Shown: piece after piece, positions 16,692 to 48,576 of the stretch
How the letters are laid out: every line of letters starts with the position of its first letter
How positions within the stretch are numbered: position 1 is the stretch's first letter
From: Hadesarchaea archaeon
GTDB lineage: Archaea > Hadarchaeota > Hadarchaeia > Hadarchaeales > WYZ-LMO6
Direction: 5' to 3'
Length of the DNA stretch: 64,000 nucleotides
Assembly (NCBI GenBank): GCA_029259185.1
Contig: JAPDJF010000001.1
Coordinates: 9,156-73,155 of the forward strand
Made by a program: the position numbers and the translations under genes
Notes under the pieces: generated by a model
Seen by the model: the letters and a program-made list of their open reading frames with translations, nothing else
The model's database searches: none
Told to the model about the DNA's origin: nothing

Positions 16692-16776
16692 GCCGGGGTA
16701 GCCTAGCCAGGTAAGGCGACAGCCTCGAGAGCTGTTGACCCATCGGGTCTCGAGGGTTCGAATCCCTCCCCCGGCG
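16692..16776 (+). tRNA. tRNA-Ser (anticodon CGA) with a long variable arm
   Basis: Manual fold: acceptor GCCGGGG/CCCCGGC, D-arm GCCT/AGGC, anticodon stem ACAGC/GCTGT with loop CUCGAGA, variable hairpin GACCC..GGGTC, and T-arm GAGGG-TTCGAAT-CCCTC. CCA is not encoded. Confidence 0.8.
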
Positions 16777-17095
16777 CTGTAGCAAAGTGAAGGATATCCC
16801 CTTTGATGGGGGATTCAATGGGAATTTTCCTTCGGATCTTGAAATTCATTTAGCGCTACAATTAGAGCAGATGCCGGTGGGTTCTAATCTGGTTCAAAAT
16901 TTACAGGATTATTTCGAAAAATGTTCTCCAATACCTAATTGCTGGCGGGGCTGTTCCCCGGCGTGTGGACACCCGTTTCATTGTAAAATACTCGAGGGGC
17001 CATGGCTACCGGGGGCTAACACCCCGCCAGCGATTATTTTGGATATAAAACATGTTTTAATCTAACGGCTAAATACTCAATCAGGAAACGTTAGG

Positions 17096-17171
17096 GCCGC
17101 CGTAGCTCAGCCGGTAGAGCGACCGCCTCGTAAGCGGTAGGTCGTGGGTTCAAAGCCCACCGGCGGCTCCA
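17096..17171 (+). tRNA. tRNA-Thr (anticodon CGU), CCA encoded
   Basis: Manual fold: acceptor GCCGCCG/CGGCGGC, D-arm GCTC/GAGC, anticodon stem ACCGC/GCGGT with loop CUCGUAA, and T-arm GTGGG-TTCAAAG-CCCAC. Discriminator T followed by CCA. Confidence 0.8.
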
Positions 17172-18033: not shown

Positions 18034-19105
18034 TTGTAAAGTATTTATATTTCAATAGGAAACGAGAGATAGGGCGATGAGACAGCTGTTTGTCAGAAGG
18101 CTCACCAAGCGGGAGAGGGACTTCGTTTACAGACTCATCGAGGACAAGCGGTACAGAGCGCGGGGGCTCGTGATCGCGCTGAGCTACGAGGGCTATCCTG
18201 TAGACATGATTGCTAGAAAGGTCAATATGCACCCGGTCAACGTGAGGAAGTGGATACGGAGGTTCAACCGATCCGGTGTCGAGGGCATTGCTCCCCAGAA
18301 GGTCGGGAGGAAGCCGAAGCTGGACAAGCGGACGGAGGATCGGATCGTCGCGATCGCGCTGATCGACCCGGAAGCGCTGGGGCTCCGATTCTCGACTTGG
18401 AGCCTGCGCAAGCTGAGCGCCTATCTGAGATCAAGGGGGATAGCCGACCTGAGCCACACCCAGCTCAGAACCATCCTGACGAGCAGGGGGTTGAGGTTCA
18501 GGCGGAGCAGGGCCAAGCTCATTTCCCGAGACCCCGAGTACGAGGCCAAAAAGCGCAGAATTCAGCGCCTGCTGAGACACCCCAACTGCAGGGTCATGTT
18601 CGAGGACGAGAAGCGTCTGGTGGCCAAGGAGTACGGCGGGTGAAGCTGGTGTAGGAAGGCAAAAGTGGTGGAGCTGAACCAGCGGACGCGGGGGAAGGAG
18701 ATTCTCTTCGTCGCCTACGACCCGCACCGGCATCGGATCGTGAGGCGGTACACACCGAACATGCACGCGCGGTGCTTTGTCGAGTTCCTGAAGCTCCTGT
18801 CGCGCACGACCGACGAGGACATCTATCTGATCTTGGACAACCATCCATCTCATCGCTCGAGGGAGGCCGGGGAGGTGTTCGCGAAGGGCAAGATAAAGCC
18901 CGTGTGGTTGCCGAAACATGCGCCCGAGCTGAACGATGTGGACAAGATCATCTTCTCTCTTCTTCAGCGGGAGGTCATTCAGAACCGGAAGTTCAGGTCG
19001 CTCGATGAGATGGAGCGATGCATCGACCGATGGATAAGAGGGTTCAACTCCTCACACAGAATAAATCCAAGTTTACAAAATTGAAGCACAATTATTTTAC
19101 AATAC
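18034..19105 (+). mobile_element. IS630/Tc1-mariner family insertion sequence, about 1.07 kb, with imperfect terminal inverted repeats
   Basis: The left end TTGTAAAGTATTTATATTTCAAT pairs with the reverse complement of the right end, TTGTAAAATAATTGTGCTTCAAT. The interior is markedly more GC-rich than the flanks. It encodes an IS630-type transposase. Confidence 0.65.
18077..19084 (+). CDS. IS630-family transposase (HTH plus DDE_3 domains), interrupted by a single in-frame TGA at 18641-18643
   Basis: The N-part (188 aa) carries HTH and pairing domains. The C-part (139 aa) is the DDE region (ILFVAYDPHRHRIV...LILDNHPSHRS...LPKHAPELNDVDKIIFSLLQREV). Both parts are in the same frame and are separated only by the TGA (EYGG*SWCRKAKVVEL). 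Confidence 0.7.
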
Positions 19106-19127: not shown

Positions 19128-19457
19128 TTGAAGAAAGCGTATACGGTTTCCAAAATCTTGCGCTCCGGAGTCCTTGGACTCCTCAGCGAGAAATCGGTTG
19201 GTCTGAGTTCAATACTGCTCTACGGTAGCGCTGCTAAGGGTGAAGACGACCGAGAAAGCGATTACGACTTTTTGGTAATCGCCGCAAGATGTACCGCGAA
19301 AAGTAGTGAGCTCTTGAGGCTCCTAGGAAGAGAGGTCACCCTGCAGGTCTTCGACGCAGCGGGCTGGAAGCGAGTAGCAAAACGAAATCGAGCATTCTAC
19401 CTAGACGTTATAAGCAGCTCCATTGTCCTTTATGGTGAAAAGCCGGTGATCGATTGA
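19128..19457 (+). pseudogene. 3-prime (nucleotidyltransferase) half of the IS-disrupted HTH-MNT gene
   Basis: LLYGSAAKGEDDRESDYDFLVIA is the minimal-nucleotidyltransferase motif GSx9-13Dx[DE]. It is homologous to the C-half of the 57559-58119 paralog (IAVYGSYASGTNDEKSAIKLLVIS). It starts 23 nt after the IS right end. Confidence 0.55.
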
Positions 19458-19467
19458 CGCTTAGGGA

Positions 19468-19668
19468 TTGTTTCGCGCTGACAAAGTGGCGGATGCTTAC
19501 ATCTGCAAGGTAACATCCGTAGGTCAAATAACCTTACCAAAAGAAATTAGAAAGGAGCTAAACATCAAAGGAGACGATTTCGTTATTTTGGAGAAAATCG
19601 GGAAAACATATTTTCTCAGAAAGGTCGGGATCGAGAAAGACATTTTGAAAAAATTAGGGCACGAGTGA
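19468..19668 (+). CDS. AbrB/SpoVT (swapped-hairpin) domain protein, likely a VapB/MazE-like antitoxin
   Basis: The 66-aa sequence contains VTSVGQITLPKEIRKELNIKGDDFVILEK, which is the looped-hinge helix pattern. Confidence 0.5.
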   Translation: MFRADKVADAYICKVTSVGQITLPKEIRKELNIKGDDFVILEKIGKTYFLRKVGIEKDILKKLGHE

Positions 19669-19743: not shown

Positions 19744-19947
19744 ATGAAAGTGTTCGTTGACGCGAACACTATTGTAAGTTTGGTGACATGTGGTGGGACT
19801 TTTTTCTCAATCCGAAACTCAACCACTTTTTTGCCTGTGGGAGAAAGGAGAAATGATGTCCAAGAAGAGGAGATGTGGGATAATCGCGGTTGGAAACGAA
19901 ATCTTGCAAGGCTATGTTCGAGACTCGAATTCCTTTTGGCTTGCTAG
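19744..19947 (+). pseudogene. PIN-domain (VapC-like) toxin remnant. Only the N-terminal 14 aa are recognisable
   Basis: MKVFVDANTIVSLV is the canonical PIN N-terminal strand with the first acidic residue. The sequence then diverges and is overlapped by the cinA-like start. Confidence 0.3.
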
Positions 19948-20644
19948 GAGACTCAACAATTTAGGGTTCGATGTGGAGAGAATTTTCGTTGTCGGAGACG
20001 TGATAAACGATATAGTCGATGTCTTGGATTCAGCTTTGAGGCTAGGACTGGATTTGATATTCGTTTGTGGAGGAGTGGGCGGAACCCCGGATGATAGGAC
20101 TGTGACCGCAGTGGCACAGGCCTTGGGTCTCGAGTTGGTAAGAGACGAAACCGTCTTAGGGGAGATCCAGAAAAAAATAGAGCTTTTAAAGAAGAAGAAT
20201 TTCGAGATAGAACTATCCAAGTGGATTCTGAAAATGGCGTATATCCCTAAAGGAAGCATTCCGTTGAAAAACAGCCTAGGTTTTGCTCCTGGAATAATGA
20301 TCGAGCTTCAGGGAACGAAGATCTTCGTTCTCCCGGGAGTGCCTGTTGAGATGAAGACGGTTTTCGCTGAGGAAGTTGAGCCTAAACTAGGTTTCGGTGA
20401 GAGAAGGGTGATGCGGGAAGTCAAATTAGATTCTGAAGAAACTAAATTCAGTGGGATCGTGGAAAGATTGGAGAAAAAGCATGAAGGCGTGACCATAGGC
20501 ATGTATCCTCACTTCGGAAAAATGCAGGTGATAATTAGGATCATCGGAGACGAACGGGAAGTAAAAAATGTGGAAAGGGAGATAATCGAGAAAGCGAAAA
20601 GGCTTGGGGTAGGTTTTTCTTCGGTGACCGATGATTTCGAGTGA
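19853..20644 (+). CDS. CinA-like / MoCF-biosynthesis (molybdopterin-binding) domain protein
   Basis: GIIAVGNEILQGYVRDSNSFWLARRL...FVCGGVGGTPDDRT follows the MoaB/CinA-N fold pattern (GGTG motif). An RBS GGAG lies 8 nt upstream of the ATG at 19853. Confidence 0.6.
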   Translation: MMSKKRRCGIIAVGNEILQGYVRDSNSFWLARRLNNLGFDVERIFVVGDVINDIVDVLDSALRLGLDLIFVCGGVGGTPDDRTVTAVAQALGLELVRDETVLGEIQKKIELLKKKNFEIELSKWILKMAYIPKGSIPLKNSLGFAPGIMIELQGTKIFVLPGVPVEMKTVFAEEVEPKLGFGERRVMREVKLDSEETKFSGIVERLEKKHEGVTIGMYPHFGKMQVIIRIIGDEREVKNVEREIIEKAKRLGVGFSSVTDDFE

Positions 20645-20828
20645 ACTACCCCTCCTCACGGAAGGAGCTTCTCCGACCGTGCCTTCGCAGCTTGGGGAAC
20701 TCCAGCACGGAACCCCTTTACGGAGACCTCTGTCCCAGAGGCGTCCCCGACAAAGAAATATCACCAAAAGTGTGTATATGAATTGCGGGCTCTCATCCCC
20801 TCCCTTTCGAACTTCCCGTCCGCATCGG

Positions 20829-21641
20829 TTAAAAGGCGGGTTCACACTCGACTTCAAAAGCTTCGCAAATGGATTCGATGTTCGTGCAGATTTTCTTCCA
20901 GTACCCCGAACCACTTGCTAGGAGGGCTGGGATCTGTTCTTTCATTCCGGGGTATTCTCGATCCAAGAAGGATCCAAGCCGGTGCAAGACCCACCTTCTC
21001 AAGTTCAGCTTGTCATATATGAGATAGCTATTCGTACTTTTAGCCACTTCAACGATTTGCTTGAAGTTTTCTTGGCTGTCGTTTACTCCGGGAATGATTG
21101 GTCCGAGGAAGAGCCAGGTTCTCACCCCTGAGGAAGAGAATTCTTCAAGGATGCGAGCTCTAGCTTCGGGTGGGGAGGCATTTGGTTCCAGCTTCTCGGC
21201 TAACTTCCGGTTCATGGTTGTTATGGTCACTCCGACCTCGAATCCATCAGGTTTGATCACATCCATATCGCGTAGGATCAGGCTGGACTTGGTCTGGATG
21301 CATACTGACAAGTTCCTAAACGACAGCAGTTCGATGCATTTGCGCGTGAGTTCGAATTTAGCCTCGGCCGGCTGGTATGGGTCACATGTAGTACCTAAGC
21401 CGACGACTCCGGCCGGTCTTCTCCTTAGTTCGGTCTCCAGTACTTCAGCGATGTTTTGTTTCACCTTAACGAGTTTCCCCCAGTTCAATCCCATCCATTC
21501 GTCGCGTAGGGTAGATGGGGAATAACAATACAGACAAGCATGTTCGCATCCGATGTACGGGTTGAGAGCATAACGTAGCCCTGGGAGCCTGCTCGGGGAG
21601 AGGGCTGACCTACACTTTATTATCGATATTTCTGCTCTCAT
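20829..21641 (-). CDS. Radical SAM protein, spore-photoproduct-lyase / DNA-repair-photolyase-like (COG1533)
   Basis: CX3CX2C cluster CEHACLYC is present. Length and pattern fit (...LGTTCDPYQP...). Its start ATG overlaps the stop of the upstream Nre-like gene as ATGA. Confidence 0.6.
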   Translation of the reverse strand: MRAEISIIKCRSALSPSRLPGLRYALNPYIGCEHACLYCYSPSTLRDEWMGLNWGKLVKVKQNIAEVLETELRRRPAGVVGLGTTCDPYQPAEAKFELTRKCIELLSFRNLSVCIQTKSSLILRDMDVIKPDGFEVGVTITTMNRKLAEKLEPNASPPEARARILEEFSSSGVRTWLFLGPIIPGVNDSQENFKQIVEVAKSTNSYLIYDKLNLRRWVLHRLGSFLDREYPGMKEQIPALLASGSGYWKKICTNIESICEAFEVECEPAF

Positions 21642-22954
21642 GAGAACTCCGTGATCTTCTTCTGGAAGAACGCATTCCTCAGGAGGGCACTGTTTTCGAC
21701 CCACTTCGACACGGGAACGGTCAATTTCTCGCTGATGTGTTTCATGACTTGTTGAAGGGAATCGAAAACATGTGGTTTGTTCCTAAGCGCTACTCGCACA
21801 CATTCCCGCGTGAACCATACCCCAACCGGAAGCACATAGCCAGGATGAATTTCTCTCAAAGCCAACACGGATGCTTGTTTTCTTTCTCGGTTGAGTTTCT
21901 CAGCTACCGCTAGTCTGCACGCGTAGTAACATCCCCCGATATCAGGATAGGTTTTCCTTCCTTGATAAGGTTCCCAATCCCCCATGATCGCTGGGTTCTC
22001 TGCGGTTGGGGGATTCCATGTGGTTCCTGGAAACCAAGATTCGATCCACTCAAAGCTCCACCGTTCCGGCATCATGATAATCACAAACACGTTGTCCATT
22101 TGTTTCAAGTGATAAACTCTGTATTCGTTGATCGTCTCCCATTGTTTTATTCGTTCGATAAGTTTGGATGAGACGATCGAGTCTACAGCGGTGATACTCC
22201 ACCTCGTCGGCACGAGTTTTCTGTTATGGCCCAGTCCGAAAATCCCTAGACTAAATGCCCGCTGGATTCGTGTGATGGTTACTCCCTCCTCATAGAGCTT
22301 TACGACGGCATCGTCTGCCCTCAGGTCTCGGTCGTAGAAGAGCTTCTCTATCCTTTTATCGACCTTGATGTCGGAGAGCTTTAGTTGGCGCATGGGGGCT
22401 GAGGGGCCGAATGGGGGAGTTTCGTGGCTTAGGGTCAGCACCGCCTTTGGTATTTTTGCCAGCAGGACTTCGGCATCGATCGGATGTTTTCCCATCGCCA
22501 CTTCTTGTAAACTTTCCACCATCCTGTTTCCAGCACGTATTGCCCGGACATCGGTACACACACTCCCGCGAATCAGTGCGGATCGGTAATCCACTATTGC
22601 TTGGAGCGGCTTCCCTAACCAAAGTTCTGGTGTATCGAGGATCTCCGTGTTTCCCTTGTATGGAGGTACCATTGGCCCTACGAATACCTTGGGATATCCT
22701 ATTCGTCCTACGAATACGGCAGGGGGAGTTGAACCTTCGATACGCGGAGAGTCGATTTGAACGGTAGCCTTTAGCAAAGACCTCGCTCTCAGGAGGATGG
22801 GGCACCTCAGCTTTCCACACAACATTTTTGCCCCCCTACACAGAAGGCAAATGGTCTCTCTTGTCCCTGAGACCCTGAGGTTGTTCGTGGATAGTTCCCT
22901 AGCGATCCGGAGGGGGAGGATTTCTCTCAGCCAATGAATGTCTTCGGTCACCAT
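21638..22954 (-). CDS. Nre-family protein (archaeal NreA-like putative DNA-repair factor, COG1602)
   Basis: Length 438 aa. N-terminal C4 zinc finger CLLCRGAKMLCGKLRCP. C-terminus ends ...LLRNAFFQKKITEFS, a PIP-like FF motif. The family call is made from length and architecture. Confidence 0.45.
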   Translation of the reverse strand: MVTEDIHWLREILPLRIARELSTNNLRVSGTRETICLLCRGAKMLCGKLRCPILLRARSLLKATVQIDSPRIEGSTPPAVFVGRIGYPKVFVGPMVPPYKGNTEILDTPELWLGKPLQAIVDYRSALIRGSVCTDVRAIRAGNRMVESLQEVAMGKHPIDAEVLLAKIPKAVLTLSHETPPFGPSAPMRQLKLSDIKVDKRIEKLFYDRDLRADDAVVKLYEEGVTITRIQRAFSLGIFGLGHNRKLVPTRWSITAVDSIVSSKLIERIKQWETINEYRVYHLKQMDNVFVIIMMPERWSFEWIESWFPGTTWNPPTAENPAIMGDWEPYQGRKTYPDIGGCYYACRLAVAEKLNRERKQASVLALREIHPGYVLPVGVWFTRECVRVALRNKPHVFDSLQQVMKHISEKLTVPVSKWVENSALLRNAFFQKKITEFS

Positions 22955-22991
22955 TCTAATTGTTTGGGATTTCGAGATTTAGAGGTTAGAT

Positions 22992-23669
22992 TCAGAGACG
23001 ACTAAGGGCTATGCACCTTATTATGTCACTAACATCTTCACAGTAGTCAGCCACATTTTCCATGTTGTCGGTGATCTCCTTCAGCAAGAGGGAGGAACCT
23101 ATATCTCTGTTCTTCCTATACCATTCGAGGAGTTGGGGCATCAATTTTTCAGCTCGGAGGTCGTCTATCTCTTCTTCGAGTTTTTCCACTTGGTGGGATA
23201 TGGCCACGGCAGAAGTTGGGTTTTTGCTCAGGACGAGAAAGTTCTTATATGTAGTCTTTGAAATCTCCACCAATCGATTCGAAAAAGTACACAGCGTCTT
23301 ACGCAGTTTCTGGGGAAGACTCTTGGGGTCTATGAAGGTCAATTTTCTCGCCACGGCTTTGGCGTTGGAGGCCACATCGTCGGCAGTCATGACGAGTCTA
23401 ACTATCTCATCCCTGTTTATGGGGTGAAAGATACCTTTCGCTAGATCTTCTAATATCTTCCTCTTTATTTCGTCAGCTTCCCTTTCTCTTTTGAAAGTAC
23501 CGGAAAAGCCGTTTATGGTCTTCTTCTTGTTCAGATTGCATACCCCTTGAACGGCTTTGTCCATCTCAATTACGGTCTCCATTATCTTCTTCATGTGAAT
23601 GTCACAACTCTTCAGAACCTCTTTCTCCCTTCCCTTCGCAACCCAGAAAAGAGGACCCGCGTGTCTCAT
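22992..23669 (-). CDS. DUF47 / PhoU-like Pit accessory protein
   Basis: It is helical and about 225 aa. It lies immediately downstream of the PiT permease gene on the same strand. The start is chosen at the Met abutting the pit stop codon. Confidence 0.55.
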   Translation of the reverse strand: MRHAGPLFWVAKGREKEVLKSCDIHMKKIMETVIEMDKAVQGVCNLNKKKTINGFSGTFKREREADEIKRKILEDLAKGIFHPINRDEIVRLVMTADDVASNAKAVARKLTFIDPKSLPQKLRKTLCTFSNRLVEISKTTYKNFLVLSKNPTSAVAISHQVEKLEEEIDDLRAEKLMPQLLEWYRKNRDIGSSLLLKEITDNMENVADYCEDVSDIIRCIALSRL

Positions 23670-24874
23670 GCTATCCCCAATCCATGTCCCAATAACACGA
23701 AAAGCACGATGCTTAATAAGGCTACGCATGGGATGGTCAAGATCCAGAACAACAAAATCTTTAGCGTAGTTGGCTTGTGGAGGGCGCCCATCCCCCCCCT
23801 CGCCAAACCCACCCCTATTATGGTCCCTATGCTGCTATGGGTGGTAGAAACGGGTATGCCGAACCCCATTAAGAAGGTGGGAACCACGGTGAATAAAAAG
23901 ACGGTGAGGGCATTCGAAAACTCAGCTACCATCCCCATCAAGGGATCAAGTCTTGTCACCCTGTAAGCGCATGTGGAGATGACCCTGTATCCCCAAGTGA
24001 GACCTCCTATAAGTATGCCCGTGGCTCCCAGAATGCTGAGAAGAAACATGGTGAGAAGTGTTGGTTCTCCTATCAGTCGCTGGGTAGGAGTGACGAAAAC
24101 TCCGGTTGCGTTCGCCATGTCGTTGGCACCGAAGGAGAGGGCAGAGAAACAGAGGGAAACTATGAGAAGGGAAGAAAGGACGAACTCGTTCTTGAAGGTT
24201 TTGTACTTCTTCCACATCGATGTGATAAGGATGGAGGGGGGGAGAAAAGAGATGGTCAGGCTACCGACCACTGCAGATAGCTTATCCCACTCGAGGAGTT
24301 TGTAGAGGACGGAGACTGAGGTGATGAAACTCAGGAAATAGGTGACGAAGTAAACTAAGATAACGTTTCCATGCTTTCTCTCCCTGCTGAAGTAGTTCCT
24401 CGCTGGACGGAAAAGACCGAACGAAAGCAGAATGGAGAGAAGGGGGGAGAGGAGGAGACTGAGGATCACGGTGAAGAGAACTCCATGGTTTATCAATCCG
24501 GGCGAGATGAGCAGACCGAAGCCTAGGACACCTCCTATCACCGAGTGGGTGGTGGACACGGGCATTCCCTTCCAGCTCGAGAAGGTGACCCAAAGGCATG
24601 CAGCGAGAGAGGCAACGAAGCTTCCCAAGATGAGTTTTTGTGTCTCGAGTTCTTCCCTCGCTATCAGTCCCCTATCGATGGTTTTCATGACGAAGGGACC
24701 GAGTATTATCCCTCCGGTGGCGGTGAAAATCGCAAAAAGGATAAAGGCTTTCTTCAAGGAGAGTACTCCAGATCCGACCGCACAATCGGTAGGATTGGCG
24801 GCATCGTTGGCCCCCATGTTCCATGCGTAGTAGAAAGCGAGAGCGATTCCAAGGGCGTATACGACCTCTAGCAT
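23666..24874 (-). CDS. pit: Inorganic phosphate transporter, PiT family
   Basis: The PiT signature GANDAAN is present near the N-terminus and the protein is polytopic. Length 402 aa. Confidence 0.85.
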   Translation of the reverse strand: MLEVVYALGIALAFYYAWNMGANDAANPTDCAVGSGVLSLKKAFILFAIFTATGGIILGPFVMKTIDRGLIAREELETQKLILGSFVASLAACLWVTFSSWKGMPVSTTHSVIGGVLGFGLLISPGLINHGVLFTVILSLLLSPLLSILLSFGLFRPARNYFSRERKHGNVILVYFVTYFLSFITSVSVLYKLLEWDKLSAVVGSLTISFLPPSILITSMWKKYKTFKNEFVLSSLLIVSLCFSALSFGANDMANATGVFVTPTQRLIGEPTLLTMFLLSILGATGILIGGLTWGYRVISTCAYRVTRLDPLMGMVAEFSNALTVFLFTVVPTFLMGFGIPVSTTHSSIGTIIGVGLARGGMGALHKPTTLKILLFWILTIPCVALLSIVLFVLLGHGLGIA

Positions 24875-24957
24875 TTTCCCCCTATAGAGGAGGGATTTAT
24901 ATAGTTTACTGAAAGGGAGACATATAGAGTTTAAATATAGAAAAATAATCTATATAG

Positions 24958-25989
24958 ATGGAGAGCGAGCGAAGGAAAGTTCAATTGACGGGCAAATCTA
25001 CCTACATAATCTCCATCCCGAAGAAGTGGGCCGTGGAGATGGGGATAAAGGAAGGCGATGAGCTTGTAATAGAAAAGCAAGATGGGTTATTACGTATCTC
25101 CCCAAAAGCGGTGAAAAGGGCCAACAAAACGGGGGAGGTTACCCTAAAGCTCTCCGCTACCGAGGATCCCCATGCGGGGGCTAGAAAGGTCGTCTCTCTG
25201 TACTTGGTGGGTTATAACGTGATACGACTTCAAGCGGAGGAGGAGAGGATATCCGCTCCCCAGAGGGAAACGATAAAACAATTCGTGAGGACGAAGCTCG
25301 TTGGGATGGAAATAACGACCGACTTACCGAACGAGATGGTTCTCCAAGTCCTCATGAGCTATCCCGAACTATCCGTCAAAGATGCTTTAAAGCGAATGTG
25401 TTTGATAGCCACATCGATGAAGAGGGATGCGATCAGCGCGTTGGAGAACTTCGATGAGACCCTCGCCAGAGACGTGATTGGGAGGGACGACGAGGTCGAC
25501 AGGTTCGGTATGTACGTGATCAGACAGCTGAAGTCAGCGGTTCAGGAGCAGAGTTTAATAAAGGAGATAGGATTGGAGACACCCCGCGATTGTCTCGGGT
25601 ACCGGCTCATCGCCAAGATAATCGAGAGGGTCTCCGATCATGTTGTCTTGATAGCCCAAAACATTCTCCAGATGAAGGGCAGGGTTGGACGTTTCCTCGT
25701 AAAGAAAATAAAAGAGATGGATTCCTTCGTTTCCGAGATATTCGAGGATGCGGTGAAATCGTTGTTTGAGGGGGATTACGAAATGGCAGAGAAAGTGATA
25801 GAGAGAGGAAGGGCATTGGTCGAGGTCGAGGAAGGTGTGGTTCGAGAAGTGCTTCGGAGGGCCTCACGGGAGCACCTGATAGCCCTGAGATTGATAATAG
25901 AGAGTCTAAGGAGGATAGGGGAATACGGGAGTGACATAGCAGAGATAGTGCTGAACCTGAATGCCACCAAAATGGTGGAAGGACGGTAG
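24958..25989 (+). CDS. Phosphate-uptake regulator, PhoU-like with an N-terminal AbrB-type domain
   Basis: N-terminus VQLTGKSTYIISIPKKWAVEMGIKEGDELVIEKQDGLLRISP is a swapped-hairpin domain. The rest is a helical PhoU-like repeat region. It is divergent from pit. Confidence 0.55.
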   Translation: MESERRKVQLTGKSTYIISIPKKWAVEMGIKEGDELVIEKQDGLLRISPKAVKRANKTGEVTLKLSATEDPHAGARKVVSLYLVGYNVIRLQAEEERISAPQRETIKQFVRTKLVGMEITTDLPNEMVLQVLMSYPELSVKDALKRMCLIATSMKRDAISALENFDETLARDVIGRDDEVDRFGMYVIRQLKSAVQEQSLIKEIGLETPRDCLGYRLIAKIIERVSDHVVLIAQNILQMKGRVGRFLVKKIKEMDSFVSEIFEDAVKSLFEGDYEMAEKVIERGRALVEVEEGVVREVLRRASREHLIALRLIIESLRRIGEYGSDIAEIVLNLNATKMVEGR

Positions 25990-26030: not shown

Positions 26031-27002
26031 GTGAGGGAGTTCCTCCGGAAGTATCGAGCCGAACTCGCCGCCATCCAATTACCTCCGGGGCTGAGGAGGT
26101 GGACTGCTAAGATCGGAAAAGTTTTCGAAGAGGAAGGAGTAGAATTCGTGATTCTCGGGAAGAGTTGTTACGGAGCCTGTGATCTCGCGGATAAAGAGGC
26201 GAAGCAGGTCGGTGCCGATGTGCTCGTACACTACGGACATGCGGACATGGGGCTCCCTGCCTCTTTGCCTGTTTTGTTTGTTGAGGCTAGGATGCTCGTG
26301 AACGTTACCGAAAAGCTCGAGCAGGGTTTTGAAGAGATCGACTCGAGGAGGGTGGGGGTAGTCACTACGGTTCAACATGTTGGTGAATTGCAGAAGGTTC
26401 GGGAATTACTGACTTCTCGGGGAATAGAAGTGGCGATCGGGAAACCCGGGTTCAGGGCGAGATATCCTGGGCAGGTCCTCGGGTGTGATATGGGCTCGGC
26501 AACCTCTGTGATGGGAGAGGTGGACGAGTTTCTCTACCTAGGTACGGGAAGGTTCCATCCCCTAGGAGTGGCTTTGGTCACCGGAAAGGAAGTTTTGACG
26601 ATAAATCCCATAACTGGAAATTTTGAAAGGTGGTCGAGGGAAACGGAAAGCTTTTTGAAGAAGAGGAGAGCTCTCGTAGCCCGAGCAGCGTGTTGCAGGA
26701 GATTTGGGGTCGTGACGAGCACAAAGATAGGGCAGGCTCGGTTCAAGCTTGCAAGACATTTGGTGGAGAAGTTGACGAAGGCGGGAAAGGATGTACAGAT
26801 GATATTGGTGGATGAAGTCACGCCTGAAACGCTCGGAGATTTCGGGTTAGACGCTGTGGTGTGCGCCGCCTGTCCCAGAATTCCGATAGATGATGCTGAG
26901 CGGTTTGAGATCCCTCTTCTGACTCCTTTTGAATTGTCGCTCGTGCTTGGTGAGAGGTGGGAGGGCTACAGGTTGGATGTGGTAAAGGCAATTGATTTTT
27001 AA
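26031..27002 (+). CDS. dph2: Diphthamide synthesis enzyme Dph2 (2-(3-amino-3-carboxypropyl)histidine synthase)
   Basis: Length 323 aa. The three-domain pattern with conserved Cys residues (ILGKSCYGACD..., GCDMGSAT..., VVCAACPRI) is typical of archaeal Dph2. Confidence 0.8.
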   Translation: MREFLRKYRAELAAIQLPPGLRRWTAKIGKVFEEEGVEFVILGKSCYGACDLADKEAKQVGADVLVHYGHADMGLPASLPVLFVEARMLVNVTEKLEQGFEEIDSRRVGVVTTVQHVGELQKVRELLTSRGIEVAIGKPGFRARYPGQVLGCDMGSATSVMGEVDEFLYLGTGRFHPLGVALVTGKEVLTINPITGNFERWSRETESFLKKRRALVARAACCRRFGVVTSTKIGQARFKLARHLVEKLTKAGKDVQMILVDEVTPETLGDFGLDAVVCAACPRIPIDDAERFEIPLLTPFELSLVLGERWEGYRLDVVKAIDF

Positions 27003-48362: not shown

Positions 48363-48447
48363 GCGAGGGTGGCCGAGCCAGGTCAAAGGCGTAAGCCTTA
48401 GGAGCTTATCCCGTAGGGGTTCGAGGGTTCAAATCCCTCCCCTCGCA
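48363..48447 (+). tRNA. tRNA-Leu (anticodon UAG) with a long variable arm
   Basis: Acceptor GCGAGGG/CCCTCGC. D-arm GCC-AGCCAGGTCAAA-GGC. Anticodon stem TAAGC/GCTTA with loop CUUAGGA. Variable hairpin CCCGTAGGGG. T-arm GAGGG-TTCAAAT-CCCTC. Discriminator A. Confidence 0.75.
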
Positions 48448-48576
48448 CTTCCAAGGAGTAAACTGATCCCAGCAGTCGAACGCCAGTCTTTTCGTGAGTC
48501 AAGAAGCGTTTCCGCACCCAATTTGACTTAGAAGTGGTTCTTGAGGATTTTTTATATGGAATAGACAAAAAGACGA

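Follow-up and report, generated by a model that had tools for sequence, protein, structure and literature searches.

The question raised by this locus is whether an archaeal Nre protein and the radical-SAM enzyme encoded directly behind it act together in DNA repair and, if so, by what chemistry. The two genes lie in a window of 64,000 nucleotides, the whole stretch of DNA analysed here, from a Hadarchaeota genome, and a first-pass annotation had read them as a candidate repair module. Nre binds the replication clamp and is required for crosslink repair in the single organism examined so far. To our knowledge, neither the Nre proteins nor any COG1533 enzyme other than spore-photoproduct lyase (SPL) has an established biochemical activity. 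The coupled SplB-like radical-SAM protein is the best available clue to Nre chemistry, because it suggests radical-based repair at PCNA.

Gene arrangement and the Nre protein

The two open reading frames (ORFs) claimed at this position were confirmed by the ORF list, with the minus strand as an added detail. The features of the transcription unit are as follows.

21638..22954, minus strand: nre gene, 438-aa Nre-family protein, stop codon included (ORF and Pfam)
20829..21641, minus strand: radical-SAM gene, 270-aa SplB-like (COG1533-type) enzyme, stop codon included
21638..21641, minus strand: ATGA stop/start overlap of nre and the radical-SAM gene (junction sequence)
22955..22991, minus strand: 37-nt spacer that separates nre from the DUF47/PhoU-like gene upstream (sequence)
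20749..20772, minus strand: T-rich stretch (CACTTTTGGTGATATTTCTTTGTC), 57-80 nt past the radical-SAM stop codon, in a convergent intergenic region

The radical-SAM ORF was listed from a GTG at 21704; its homologues favour an ATG start at 21641, which gives the 270-aa protein. The junction on the minus strand reads GGAGTTCTCATGA, and therefore the stop codon of nre and the start codon of the radical-SAM gene overlap as ATGA, exactly the coupling that had been claimed, with an SD-like GGAG at 21647-21650, 5 nt upstream of the radical-SAM ATG. Upstream of nre, about 25 nt from its ATG, a TCTAAATC element might act as the TATA box of a leaderless transcript, and the T-rich stretch CACTTTTGGTGATATTTCTTTGTC could possibly serve as an archaeal terminator at the operon end, beyond which a convergent MoCF/CinA-like gene is located (19790..20644, plus strand). 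A scan for sigma-70 promoters and intrinsic terminators gave counts no higher than those in shuffled sequence; the models are bacterial and not applicable to an archaeon. The genes flanking the pair in the window (PiT, DUF47 and MoCF) are functionally unrelated, and therefore the nre–radical-SAM pair stands alone. No second Nre copy was found in the window by tblastn. We consider the two-gene operon to be real. A reading of the pair as a defence system was rejected, as the PADLOC scan matched no defence-system family in either protein.

The domains and motifs of the Nre protein are located as follows.

22013..22822, minus strand: Nre_N domain, aa 45-314 (Pfam), with a near-invariant VPTRWSITAVD motif at aa 248-258
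21644..21973, minus strand: Nre_C domain, aa 328-437 (Pfam), with conserved GGCYYA, REIHPG and PVGVW..RE..R motifs
22802..22849, minus strand: N-terminal Cys4 metal-binding motif, C36-x2-C39-x6-C46-x4-C51
21641..21664, minus strand: C-terminal PIP-like box QKKITEFS, aa 431-438, of the Qxx[ILM]xx[FY] type (sequence motif)

The assignment of the 438-aa protein to the Nre family (COG1602) was borne out by the Pfam profile search, in which Nre_N (PF04894; 334.4 bits against a cut-off of 25, E 9.1e-100, profile positions 1-270 of 270) and Nre_C (PF04895; 133.6 bits against a cut-off of 27, E 3.4e-39, profile positions 1-110 of 110) both matched at full length and above the gathering score. NCBI contains a protein identical to it (P0001), and its nearest relatives are from Hadarchaeota, followed by Bathyarchaeia, Nitrososphaeria, Thermoplasmata and Methanoperedens, an archaeal distribution as for the family. 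The Nre family is specific to archaea and is represented in almost all of them.

The first-pass annotation had proposed an N-terminal C4 zinc finger and an FF-containing PCNA-interacting tail, and each proposal stands in part. Among near relatives, C46 and C51 never vary, and conservation of C36 and C39 is at least 90%; the Cys4 motif is invariant in 85 of the 85 rows of alignment A3, rows that were mostly picked among C4-bearing representatives, and is present in 95 of 122 diverse full-length Nre representatives. It is common in the Nre family, not universal. The conserved cysteines are thus as proposed and would bind either Zn or an Fe-S cluster; AlphaFold confidence is low in this region. 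At the other end of the protein, a PIP-like motif is indeed present, but it is not the FF pair (F429 and F430); the box is Q431-K-K-I434-T-E-F437-S438, just after that pair at the extreme C-terminus. Near relatives all keep Q431, conservation of F437 among them is at least 90%, and an equivalent box was detected by pattern in 76 of 80 orthologue loci and in 96 of the 122 diverse representatives. We regard QKKITEFS as PIP-like, that is, as the putative PCNA-interacting motif of this protein.

The fold of the Nre protein was less informative. A sequence search against the PDB gave no Nre relative at E<=1, and Foldseek with the confident model (pTM 0.83) returned nothing from the PDB or BFVD at E<=0.001. 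As the model has no significant structural neighbour, its fold gives no readable catalytic or DNA-binding role. Likenesses to GyrB/ParE/MutL ATPase-transducer modules, Fae, IGPD and OB folds were set aside for their low probability and low TM.

Conservation of the pairing and naming of the linked Nre protein

The adjacency of nre and a radical-SAM gene was surveyed in reference genomes, at the 80 Nre loci closest to that of the window, by searching for a radical-SAM gene within 6 kb. In 41 of the 80 loci, from several archaeal phyla, nre is followed on its own strand by a gene of the same radical-SAM family, and the two genes overlap or are at most 50 nt apart in 31 of these 41. The exact 4-nt ATGA overlap recurs in 9 related loci, with other overlaps in 6. 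The pairing was present in all five clearly Hadarchaeal reference loci and is widespread in Thermoplasmata, Methanoperedens and hot-spring Nitrososphaeria, and when the search was made from the radical-SAM side, all four metagenome loci had a gene for a protein with Nre_N and Nre_C directly upstream, among unrelated flanking genes. The conservation of this adjacency in related genomes was therefore confirmed, and of the two refuting conditions set in the first-pass annotation, an unrelated family for the 438-aa protein or a pairing not conserved in relatives, neither applied; the pairing is far above chance. Furthermore, the pairwise distances of the Nre and radical-SAM proteins co-vary (Mantel r=0.70, with 0 of 999 permutations as high).

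The conservation is wide but lineage-dependent, being found mostly in anaerobic lineages. About 45% of the closest Nre orthologues, including most of those in Bathyarchaeia and all Nitrososphaerales loci, have no radical-SAM gene within 6 kb, and the pair is split by an unrelated gene (Nudix, NYN or MBL) in 6 loci. ORF clustering of related loci revealed no third conserved gene in the module; the other large ORF clusters around nre were antisense shadow ORFs of nre and were discarded as members. No fusion of Nre and radical-SAM proteins was found, by Pfam domains, among the 240 Nre and 120 radical-SAM matches listed. A third, profile-based search for Nre homologues yielded mostly Bathyarchaeia at 44-51% identity, and no distant clade was reached for which the gene context could be used.

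Nearly all of the linked Nre proteins in the 41 loci carry a canonical Qxx[ILM]xx[FY] box, which bears on the name of the window protein. In the literature, linkage to SplB was assigned to NreB, a second copy with a less clear PIP motif, and NreA is the copy with the clear C-terminal PIP (PMC4929162). The window protein combines the clear PIP, an NreA trait, with the SplB-like adjacency, an NreB trait. It scored 238 bits against the haloarchaeal NreA equivalog NF041387, for which the cut-off is 700, a shortfall that says little about NreA-type function because the model is specific to Halobacteria. In a tree of 122 representatives and the 80 loci, tails lacking the Q were scattered and did not form one clade, and cluster look-ups for Nre gave generic 'Nre family' names only, from MAGs. 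The label 'NreA-like', as used in the first-pass annotation, is thus unsafe, since the literature links SplB to NreB and the window protein is not anchored to either paralogue. In many lineages, the radical-SAM-linked Nre might prove to be a canonical PIP-bearing orthologue rather than a degenerate 'NreB'. The linked Nre proteins retain the Cys4 motif as well.

The radical-SAM protein and spore-photoproduct lyase

SPL, the nearest solved relative of the window enzyme, reverses an intrastrand thymine crosslink by 5'-deoxyadenosyl-radical chemistry. The cluster motif of the window enzyme is the following.

21522..21548, minus strand: [4Fe-4S]/SAM motif C32-EHA-C36-L-Y38-C39-Y40 (CxxxCxYCY), invariant in alignment A2

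The 270-aa protein was verified as a radical-SAM protein with the expected CX3CX2C cluster (C32-x3-C36-x2-C39), its match to PF04055 being above the gathering score (48.3 bits against a cut-off of 29.5), and its AF2 model is a confident partial TIM-barrel (pLDDT 95.6). The top three NCBIfam matches were PA0069 (2e-44), Rv2578c (5e-36) and mobile pair B (5e-30). The scores were 152 bits for PA0069 (NF033668, cut-off 360) and 124 bits for Rv2578c (NF038135, cut-off 430); because they fall below the curated cut-offs, the window protein represents a related archaeal subfamily and not the PA0069 or Rv2578c equivalog. Many of its homologues carry the JGI name 'DNA repair photolyase'. On these profile matches, we assign it to the COG1533 'SplB-like / DNA repair photolyase' group, to which PA0069, Rv2578c and the rSAM mobile pair B belong.

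Compared with SPL (SplB) of Geobacillus thermodenitrificans (PDB 4FHC), the window protein is about 14% identical and shorter (270 versus 340 aa), and the N-terminal region of SPL ahead of the cluster motif, roughly 58 residues, is missing from it (cysteines at 32-39 versus 90-97). The CxxxCxYCY motif is common to both, GCEHACLYCY aligning with GCMGHCHYCY, and so is a second block, EPxxS..RL..GPI. Because the cluster motifs align, Y38 and Y40, both invariant in alignment A2, correspond to the SPL active-site residues Y96 and Y98 (G. thermodenitrificans numbering). The top PDB match of the radical-SAM profile was 4FHC at E=3.3e-4, covering 31 aa and, weakly, a second block, and the top Foldseek PDB matches of the model were the SPL structures 4fhg and 4fhc (TMq 0.70-0.71, E 3-4e-9, about 300 aligned columns), with the PFL-activase ranking behind (TM 0.61). 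No SPL-specific model was among the NCBIfam matches at E<=0.1, and phmmer of the window protein against the PDB did not find 4FHC at E<=1. SPL has a Cys140/141 H-atom donor, whereas in the sequence alignment A2 the window family has no universally conserved fourth cysteine, the three cluster ligands being the only invariant ones; C86 of the window protein, about +47 from the third cluster cysteine, aligns with Thr in at least 90% of relatives. The setting of SPL is the spore and UV, and the window enzyme has neither context. Thus, of the similarity to SPL and DNA-repair photolyase that had been noted, the COG1533 membership, the shared motif and the best fold match hold, but the relationship is remote and is not orthology.

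Proposed joint action at the clamp and comparison with known systems

[quoted passage not shown] The ATGA coupling would provide the two proteins in matched amounts, and they would meet at such sites as stalled forks or repair patches. Nre would dock on the clamp and probably engage the DNA or the lesion, possibly with metal-dependent catalysis of its own through invariant Asp/Glu/Arg residues, and SAM-derived radical chemistry of the partner may reverse or unhook a crosslink-type or other bulky lesion, presumably not the spore photoproduct, that forms in anoxic and often hot habitats. Since about half of the Nre orthologues have no adjacent copy, the radical-SAM enzyme is best seen as an accessory, lesion-specific module and not as an obligatory subunit; Nre clearly can work without this partner. 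The more specific proposal, that anaerobic archaea repair DNA with a PCNA-docked complex of Nre and the SplB-like enzyme, whose radical-SAM chemistry directly reverses or unhooks a crosslink or bulky adduct, is tentative, and we consider it doubtful as it stands.

The same genes could be explained in other ways. Co-transcription might reflect regulatory economy only, with the radical-SAM enzyme working independently on RNA, a cofactor, a metabolite or DNA lesions without Nre. The adjacency is missing in about 45% of close Nre orthologues and interrupted by insertions in 6 loci, the PA0069 and Rv2578c families have no known function, and Nre has a phenotype by itself in Haloferax, an organism described as NreA-only, all of which suits such independence; we nevertheless judge it unlikely, because the pair is retained, usually overlapping or nearly abutting, across phyla with wholly different flanking genes, because the two genes co-diverge, and because each partner is independently tied to the DNA-damage response. 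It is also conceivable that Nre is the substrate of the radical-SAM enzyme, which as a maturase or activase would equip it with a post-translational modification or a protein radical, so that Nre alone touches DNA. The small size of the enzyme (270 aa), which lacks the SPL-type N-terminal residues (about 58), the glycyl-radical activases as second-best relatives (PFL-AE with TM 0.61 and phmmer E=0.003, and several weak activase matches) and the tight translational coupling, which is typical of enzyme-substrate pairs too, fit this explanation. On the other hand, SPL outranks the activases in both profile and fold searches, the bacterial radical-SAM relatives occur without Nre, in SOS regulons, and no glycyl-radical-type motif is evident among the invariant residues of Nre. 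Moreover, Nre orthologues with the same motifs have no adjacent radical-SAM gene in about half of the lineages, including the aerobic Nitrososphaerales, and Nre works without one in Haloferax too; because such orthologues function without it, an obligatory modification of Nre is unlikely, and we regard this explanation as a whole as quite improbable.

Lastly, the enzyme might be a genuine SPL orthologue that repairs 5-thyminyl-5,6-dihydrothymine in archaeal DNA, given that SPL is the closest solved structure (TM 0.70) and that the CxxxCxYCY motif with both catalytic-site tyrosines is common to the two. We hold this to be very improbable indeed. The hosts, anaerobes of the subsurface or of hot springs, receive little UV, no SPL-specific model was matched, the single-sequence search missed SPL at an identity of about 14%, and no conserved Cys140-type H-atom donor is apparent in the sequence alignment. 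Furthermore, archaea do not form spores, and the spore photoproduct is unreported in them (PMC4929162).

If the more specific proposal of a PCNA-docked Nre–radical-SAM complex were true, DNA repair by radical chemistry would for the first time be known from anywhere but bacterial spores, and the structurally orphan Nre family would gain its first biochemical role, as a lesion-engaging or clamp-tethering subunit. The survey sharpens the picture in that the partner gene is the sole conserved feature of the neighbourhood and follows a lineage pattern, the linked Nre proteins keep the PIP box and the Cys4 motif, the fold of the partner is nearest to SPL although no SPL-type cysteine donor is seen to be conserved in its sequence alignment, and Nre has no solved relative. 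Failed attempts at Nre protein purification have been reported by MacNeill (PMC4929162), and Hadarchaeal or Thermoplasmata orthologues might suit biochemistry better than those earlier choices.

Nre/SplB-like gene pairs, sometimes with overlapping ORFs, are known from the work of Giroux & MacNeill (Mol Microbiol 2016) and from a review by MacNeill (Curr Genet 2016, PMC4929162), and joint repair of intra- or interstrand crosslinks other than the spore photoproduct was proposed for them in 2016 (PMC4929162). The window matches the published arrangement, with nre directly followed by an overlapping SplB-like radical-SAM gene on the same strand and with an Nre protein that has the N-terminal Cys4 and C-terminal PIP motifs; it differs in holding one Nre copy only, with a canonical box, and in coming from Hadarchaeota, a phylum unrecognised at the time of the 2016 work. 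Because both the pairing and the repair hypothesis were published then, the locus is a typical example rather than a discovery and brings no new concept. Our literature search for later work on NreA retrieved two reviews only.

Haloferax volcanii NreA (HVO_0734), the only Nre member studied genetically (PMC4929162), resembles the window protein in its Nre_N and Nre_C architecture and C-terminal PIP, and deletion of nreA causes sensitivity to mitomycin C (MMC) that is epistatic with uvrABC and PIP-dependent (PMC4929162; PMC7776575). Haloarchaeal NreA lacks the Cys4 motif that the window protein has, and the Haloferax work describes no SplB partner (PMC4929162). On the side of the enzyme, the closest sequence families, PA0069 and Rv2578c, are those of the bacterial SOS-associated SplB-like genes (Aravind et al. 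2013, PMC3765255), COG1533 members that are LexA/SOS-regulated and lie in operons with the repair-recruiting ImuB-C domain (PMC3765255; PMC3381160; PMC8565304). The regulator there is LexA, which is absent from archaea, and the partner is ImuB-C instead of Nre; as a non-polymerase protein that recruits repair factors, ImuB-C is analogous to the clamp-binding Nre.

The gene pair and its flanks

The interval 20829-22954 of the window contains two minus-strand ORFs, nre and a gene for an SplB-like radical-SAM protein (rSAM). The rSAM ORF as called begins at GTG 21704, and alignment with homologues supported the ATG at 21641 as the real start, resulting in a product of 270 aa. The minus-strand junction reads GGAGTTCTCATGA, so that the TGA stop of nre and the ATG of rSAM share 4 nt, and GGAG lies 5 nt 5' of the rSAM ATG. 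The coordinates, protein length, ATGA overlap, N-terminal four-cysteine motif (Cys4) and CX3CX2C cluster motif in the first-pass annotation were all borne out by the ORF calls and the sequence; the strand, left unstated there, is minus. Only one Nre copy is present within the window.

Features of the window around the pair
16692-16777, plus strand: tRNA Ser(CGA), just upstream of the insertion sequence
17096-17171, plus strand: tRNA Thr(CGT), just upstream of the insertion sequence
18077-19084, plus strand: split IS630/Tc1-like transposase, two ORFs
18077-18643, plus strand: transposase HTH part (HTH_32/HTH_29)
18665-19084, plus strand: transposase DDE_3 part
19128-19668, plus strand: nucleotidyltransferase (Polbeta/NTP_transf_2, 109 aa), then a 66-aa MazE/AbrB-like protein
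20829..21641, minus strand: rSAM gene, 270 aa
21638..22954, minus strand: nre, 438 aa
22992-23729, minus strand: DUF47/PhoU_div gene
23666-24874, minus strand: PiT/PHO4 transporter
24958-25989, plus strand: divergent PhoU protein with an N-terminal MazE/AbrB-like domain
26031-27002, plus strand: Dph2-type diphthamide synthase, also a (non-canonical) radical-SAM enzyme
48363-48448, plus strand: tRNA Leu(TAG)

A phosphate module (22992-25989) is located directly upstream of nre, and read-through co-transcription from the DUF47 gene into nre is possible because the gap from the DUF47 stop to the nre ATG is only 37 nt. The diphthamide synthase gene, about 3 kb from nre, is found less than 1 kb from nre in a related metagenome contig (L083, 483-1484; also in the contig L084), which probably reflects gene order shared locally in the phylum rather than a functional link. 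On the other side, the split transposase, some 2 kb away from the operon, points to an insertion sequence that is frameshifted or uses programmed frameshifting, and the adjoining nucleotidyltransferase and MazE/AbrB-like pair looks like an MNT-type toxin-antitoxin module, the usual HEPN partner of which was not seen at 19128-19668.

Family and motifs of the two proteins

The 438-aa protein belongs unambiguously to the Nre family, as indicated by Pfam matches over the full profiles of Nre_N (9.1e-100, positions 1-270 of 270) and Nre_C (3.4e-39, positions 1-110 of 110). Of the first-pass label "NreA-like", the family assignment is therefore upheld and the NreA designation itself is unproven; the score against the haloarchaeal NreA equivalog was 238 bits, below the cut-off of 700 bits. 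NCBI already has an identical protein, and the closest relatives, 56-67% identical, come from Hadarchaeota/Hadesarchaea MAGs, where they are named "Nre family DNA repair protein", indicating that the window is from a Hadarchaeota archaeon. The Cys4 motif is C36-x2-C39-x6-C46-x4-C51. The FF pair, previously taken for the PCNA-interacting motif (PIP), proved to be the wrong element, as the conserved box is Q431-K-K-I-T-E-F437-S438 just after it, at the extreme C-terminus, with Q431 invariant in 36 relatives and F437 conserved in at least 90% of them.

The family is of modest size (1,149 clusters at 50% identity). Among 122 diverse full-length representatives, a Qxx[ILMV]xx[FYW] box was present within the last 25 residues in 96, and the N-terminal Cys4 in 95. 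The residues near-invariant throughout the family (among them PTRWxITAxD, E302, E305, E328, GxYY, R347, E352, R367/E368 and GVW..RE..R) might, speculatively, form a catalytic or nucleic-acid-binding site. The structure model of the window Nre was confident over residues 51-430 (pTM 0.83), and neither PDB nor BFVD contained a significant structural match to it, so that the fold offers no functional handle. Many deposited Nre gene models (database proteins P0076, P0110, P0118 and other 397-aa entries) begin at the internal Met of ...GGRMLCGK..., by which the first CxxC of the Cys4 is lost; this looks like a systematic start-site miscall rather than a real short isoform. Because Nre proteins, about 400 aa in length, are described as archaea-specific in MacNeill's review (PMC4929162, citing Giroux & MacNeill 2016), an Nre protein labelled 'Acidobacteriota bacterium' in NCBI (P0428) probably comes from a mis-binned archaeal contig.

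PF04055 (48.3 bits versus a cut-off of 29.5) and the cluster motif C32-x3-C36-x2-C39 identify the 270-aa protein as a radical-SAM enzyme. Its best NCBIfam relatives, PA0069, Rv2578c and "mobile pair B" (2e-44 to 5e-30, all under the cut-offs), are families of the COG1533 "SplB / DNA repair photolyase" group, and many close homologues bear the JGI name "DNA repair photolyase". A single-sequence search of PDB did not find spore-photoproduct lyase (SPL), giving only weak PFL-activase matches, and a profile of 33 diverse orthologues placed SPL (4FHC) first with E=3.3e-4, the match spanning just 31 residues round the cluster motif and one weak second block. In this alignment, GCEHACLYCY of rSAM pairs with GCMGHCHYCY of SPL, which sets Y38 and Y40, both invariant, opposite Y96 and Y98 of SPL. 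PDB includes the SPL mutants Y98F, C140A and C140S, and the residues mutated belong to the radical-transfer path of SPL. The best PDB structural neighbours of the very confident AlphaFold model (pLDDT 95.6) were likewise SPL entries (TM 0.70-0.71, E about 3e-9), ahead of PFL-activase (TM 0.61). Three features speak against orthology with SPL: the identity is about 14%, the N-terminal stretch of SPL ahead of the cluster motif is missing, and no fourth conserved cysteine was found across the relatives aligned, C86 of the window protein being Thr in at least 90%. Thus, the earlier term "SPL-type" holds at the level of fold and motif, with no support for an SPL proper, and "SPL-like" is the right description.

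Conservation of the pairing

A scan with the Nre profile, using one reference genome per species, yielded 593 Nre-encoding stretches, and the best 80 loci (45-63% identity) were kept, spanning Hadarchaeota, Bathyarchaeia, Nitrososphaeria, Thermoplasmata, Methanoperedens, Aenigmatarchaeota and Hecatella. With the window rSAM as the query, tblastn gave a same-strand homologue downstream of nre in 41 of these 80 and a divergent one upstream of it in one more; 34 had none within 6 kb of nre, and downstream room was too short to judge in 4. The adjacency proposed in the first-pass annotation is therefore present in related genomes, and it follows lineage.

Spacing of nre and rSAM at the 41 linked loci, and linkage by lineage
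4-nt ATGA-type overlap: 9 loci
Other overlap: 6 loci
Gap of 50 nt or less: 16 loci
Gap of roughly 60-150 nt: 4 loci, including L011
0.4-1.4 kb apart: 6 loci
Clearly Hadarchaeal loci: 5/5 linked
Thermoplasmata-type loci: 15 directly linked, 3 with one intervening gene
Methanoperedens / Methanosarcinales: 6/9 directly linked, 1 more with one intervening gene
Hot-spring Nitrososphaeria and Hecatella: linked
Bathyarchaeia: mostly unlinked
Nitrososphaerales / Thaumarchaeota: all unlinked

When every ORF of the 80 loci was clustered, rSAM was the sole conserved neighbour of nre; the other large clusters were rejected as antisense shadow ORFs of nre. In the reverse direction, two rSAM homologues picked for contigs outside the Nre match list both had an Nre_N+Nre_C gene immediately upstream with overlapping ends (four metagenome contigs). 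The genes flanking the pair there are unrelated to those of the window, where the PiT transporter and DUF47/PhoU-like genes precede nre and a MoCF/CinA-like gene in convergent orientation follows rSAM; the unit conserved is therefore the two genes, nre and rSAM, as an isolated module. The pairwise distances of Nre and rSAM also co-varied (Mantel r=0.70, 0/999 permutations), as expected if the two are inherited together, with a contribution from shared species phylogeny.

Among intervening genes, a same-strand Nudix-box hydrolase lies between nre and rSAM in three Thermoplasmata-type genomes (L051, 4949-5317; L064 and L067, 7196-7645), overlapping the nre stop in the latter two. An NYN/LabA-like gene (L078) and an opposite-strand MBL-fold gene (L016) occupy this place elsewhere.

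Proposed function of the pair and its published counterparts

The analysis shows the family identities, the motifs, the translational overlap and the conservation of the isolated pair; beyond this, the two proteins are inferred to be made together and to act at PCNA, where Nre would dock on the clamp through QKKITEFS and probably engage the lesion or DNA, and the SplB-like enzyme would turn 5'-deoxyadenosyl radicals on a DNA lesion that is not spore photoproduct. Since about half of the Nre orthologues have no such partner, those of ammonia-oxidising aerobes among them, rSAM is better viewed as an accessory module, in keeping with the sensitivity of radical-SAM enzymes to oxygen. Rival explanations are that rSAM is a maturase acting on Nre, that the two proteins function independently, and that rSAM has true SPL activity. 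The last shares the fold match and would have to accommodate the divergence from SPL; according to MacNeill's review, no spore photoproduct formation is known in archaea, and SplB-like proteins may have evolved toward repair of intra- or interstrand crosslinks of other kinds. Work on bacteria independently links the partner family to DNA damage: Rv2578c carries a LexA site that is RecA-dependent (PMC3381160), COG1533 is a conserved SOS-regulon member (PMC8565304), and SplB-like genes share operons with the repair-recruiting ImuB-C domain (PMC3765255). As for Nre, deletion of nreA in Haloferax causes sensitivity to mitomycin C (MMC) and failure to restore the chromosomes after MMC; it is epistatic with uvrA/B/C, and NreA function requires the PIP motif (PMC4929162; PMC7776575). 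The literature searched contained no biochemical or structural study of Nre published since.

MacNeill's review describes a C-terminal PIP as usual in the family and the N-terminal Cys4 as frequent, with either a zinc finger or an Fe-S cluster possible for the latter. In the published sense, NreB is a second copy with a less clear PIP that adjoins the SplB-like gene. Our survey differs from this description, since the canonical Qxx[ILM]xx[FY] box was found by motif pattern in 76/80 orthologues, linked or not, as was the Cys4 in 74 of the 79 extracted intact, and Q-less tails were scattered through the family tree without forming a single clade. A divergent Nre in a Hadarchaeota-labelled MAG (L038, 1604-2827; 48% identity to the window protein) is unlinked to rSAM, has the clear PIP QKRIDEFF and clusters with sequences labelled Thermococci and Aenigmatarchaeota; either a second paralogue in the phylum or mis-binning could account for it. 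The nre and radical-SAM pair is a real feature, correctly identified in the first-pass annotation, and its value lies in the standing question of the biochemical function of Nre and in nothing particular to the window. Both the pairing and its repair interpretation restate an observation and a hypothesis already published, and the pair described here is an ordinary member of that published gene pairing.
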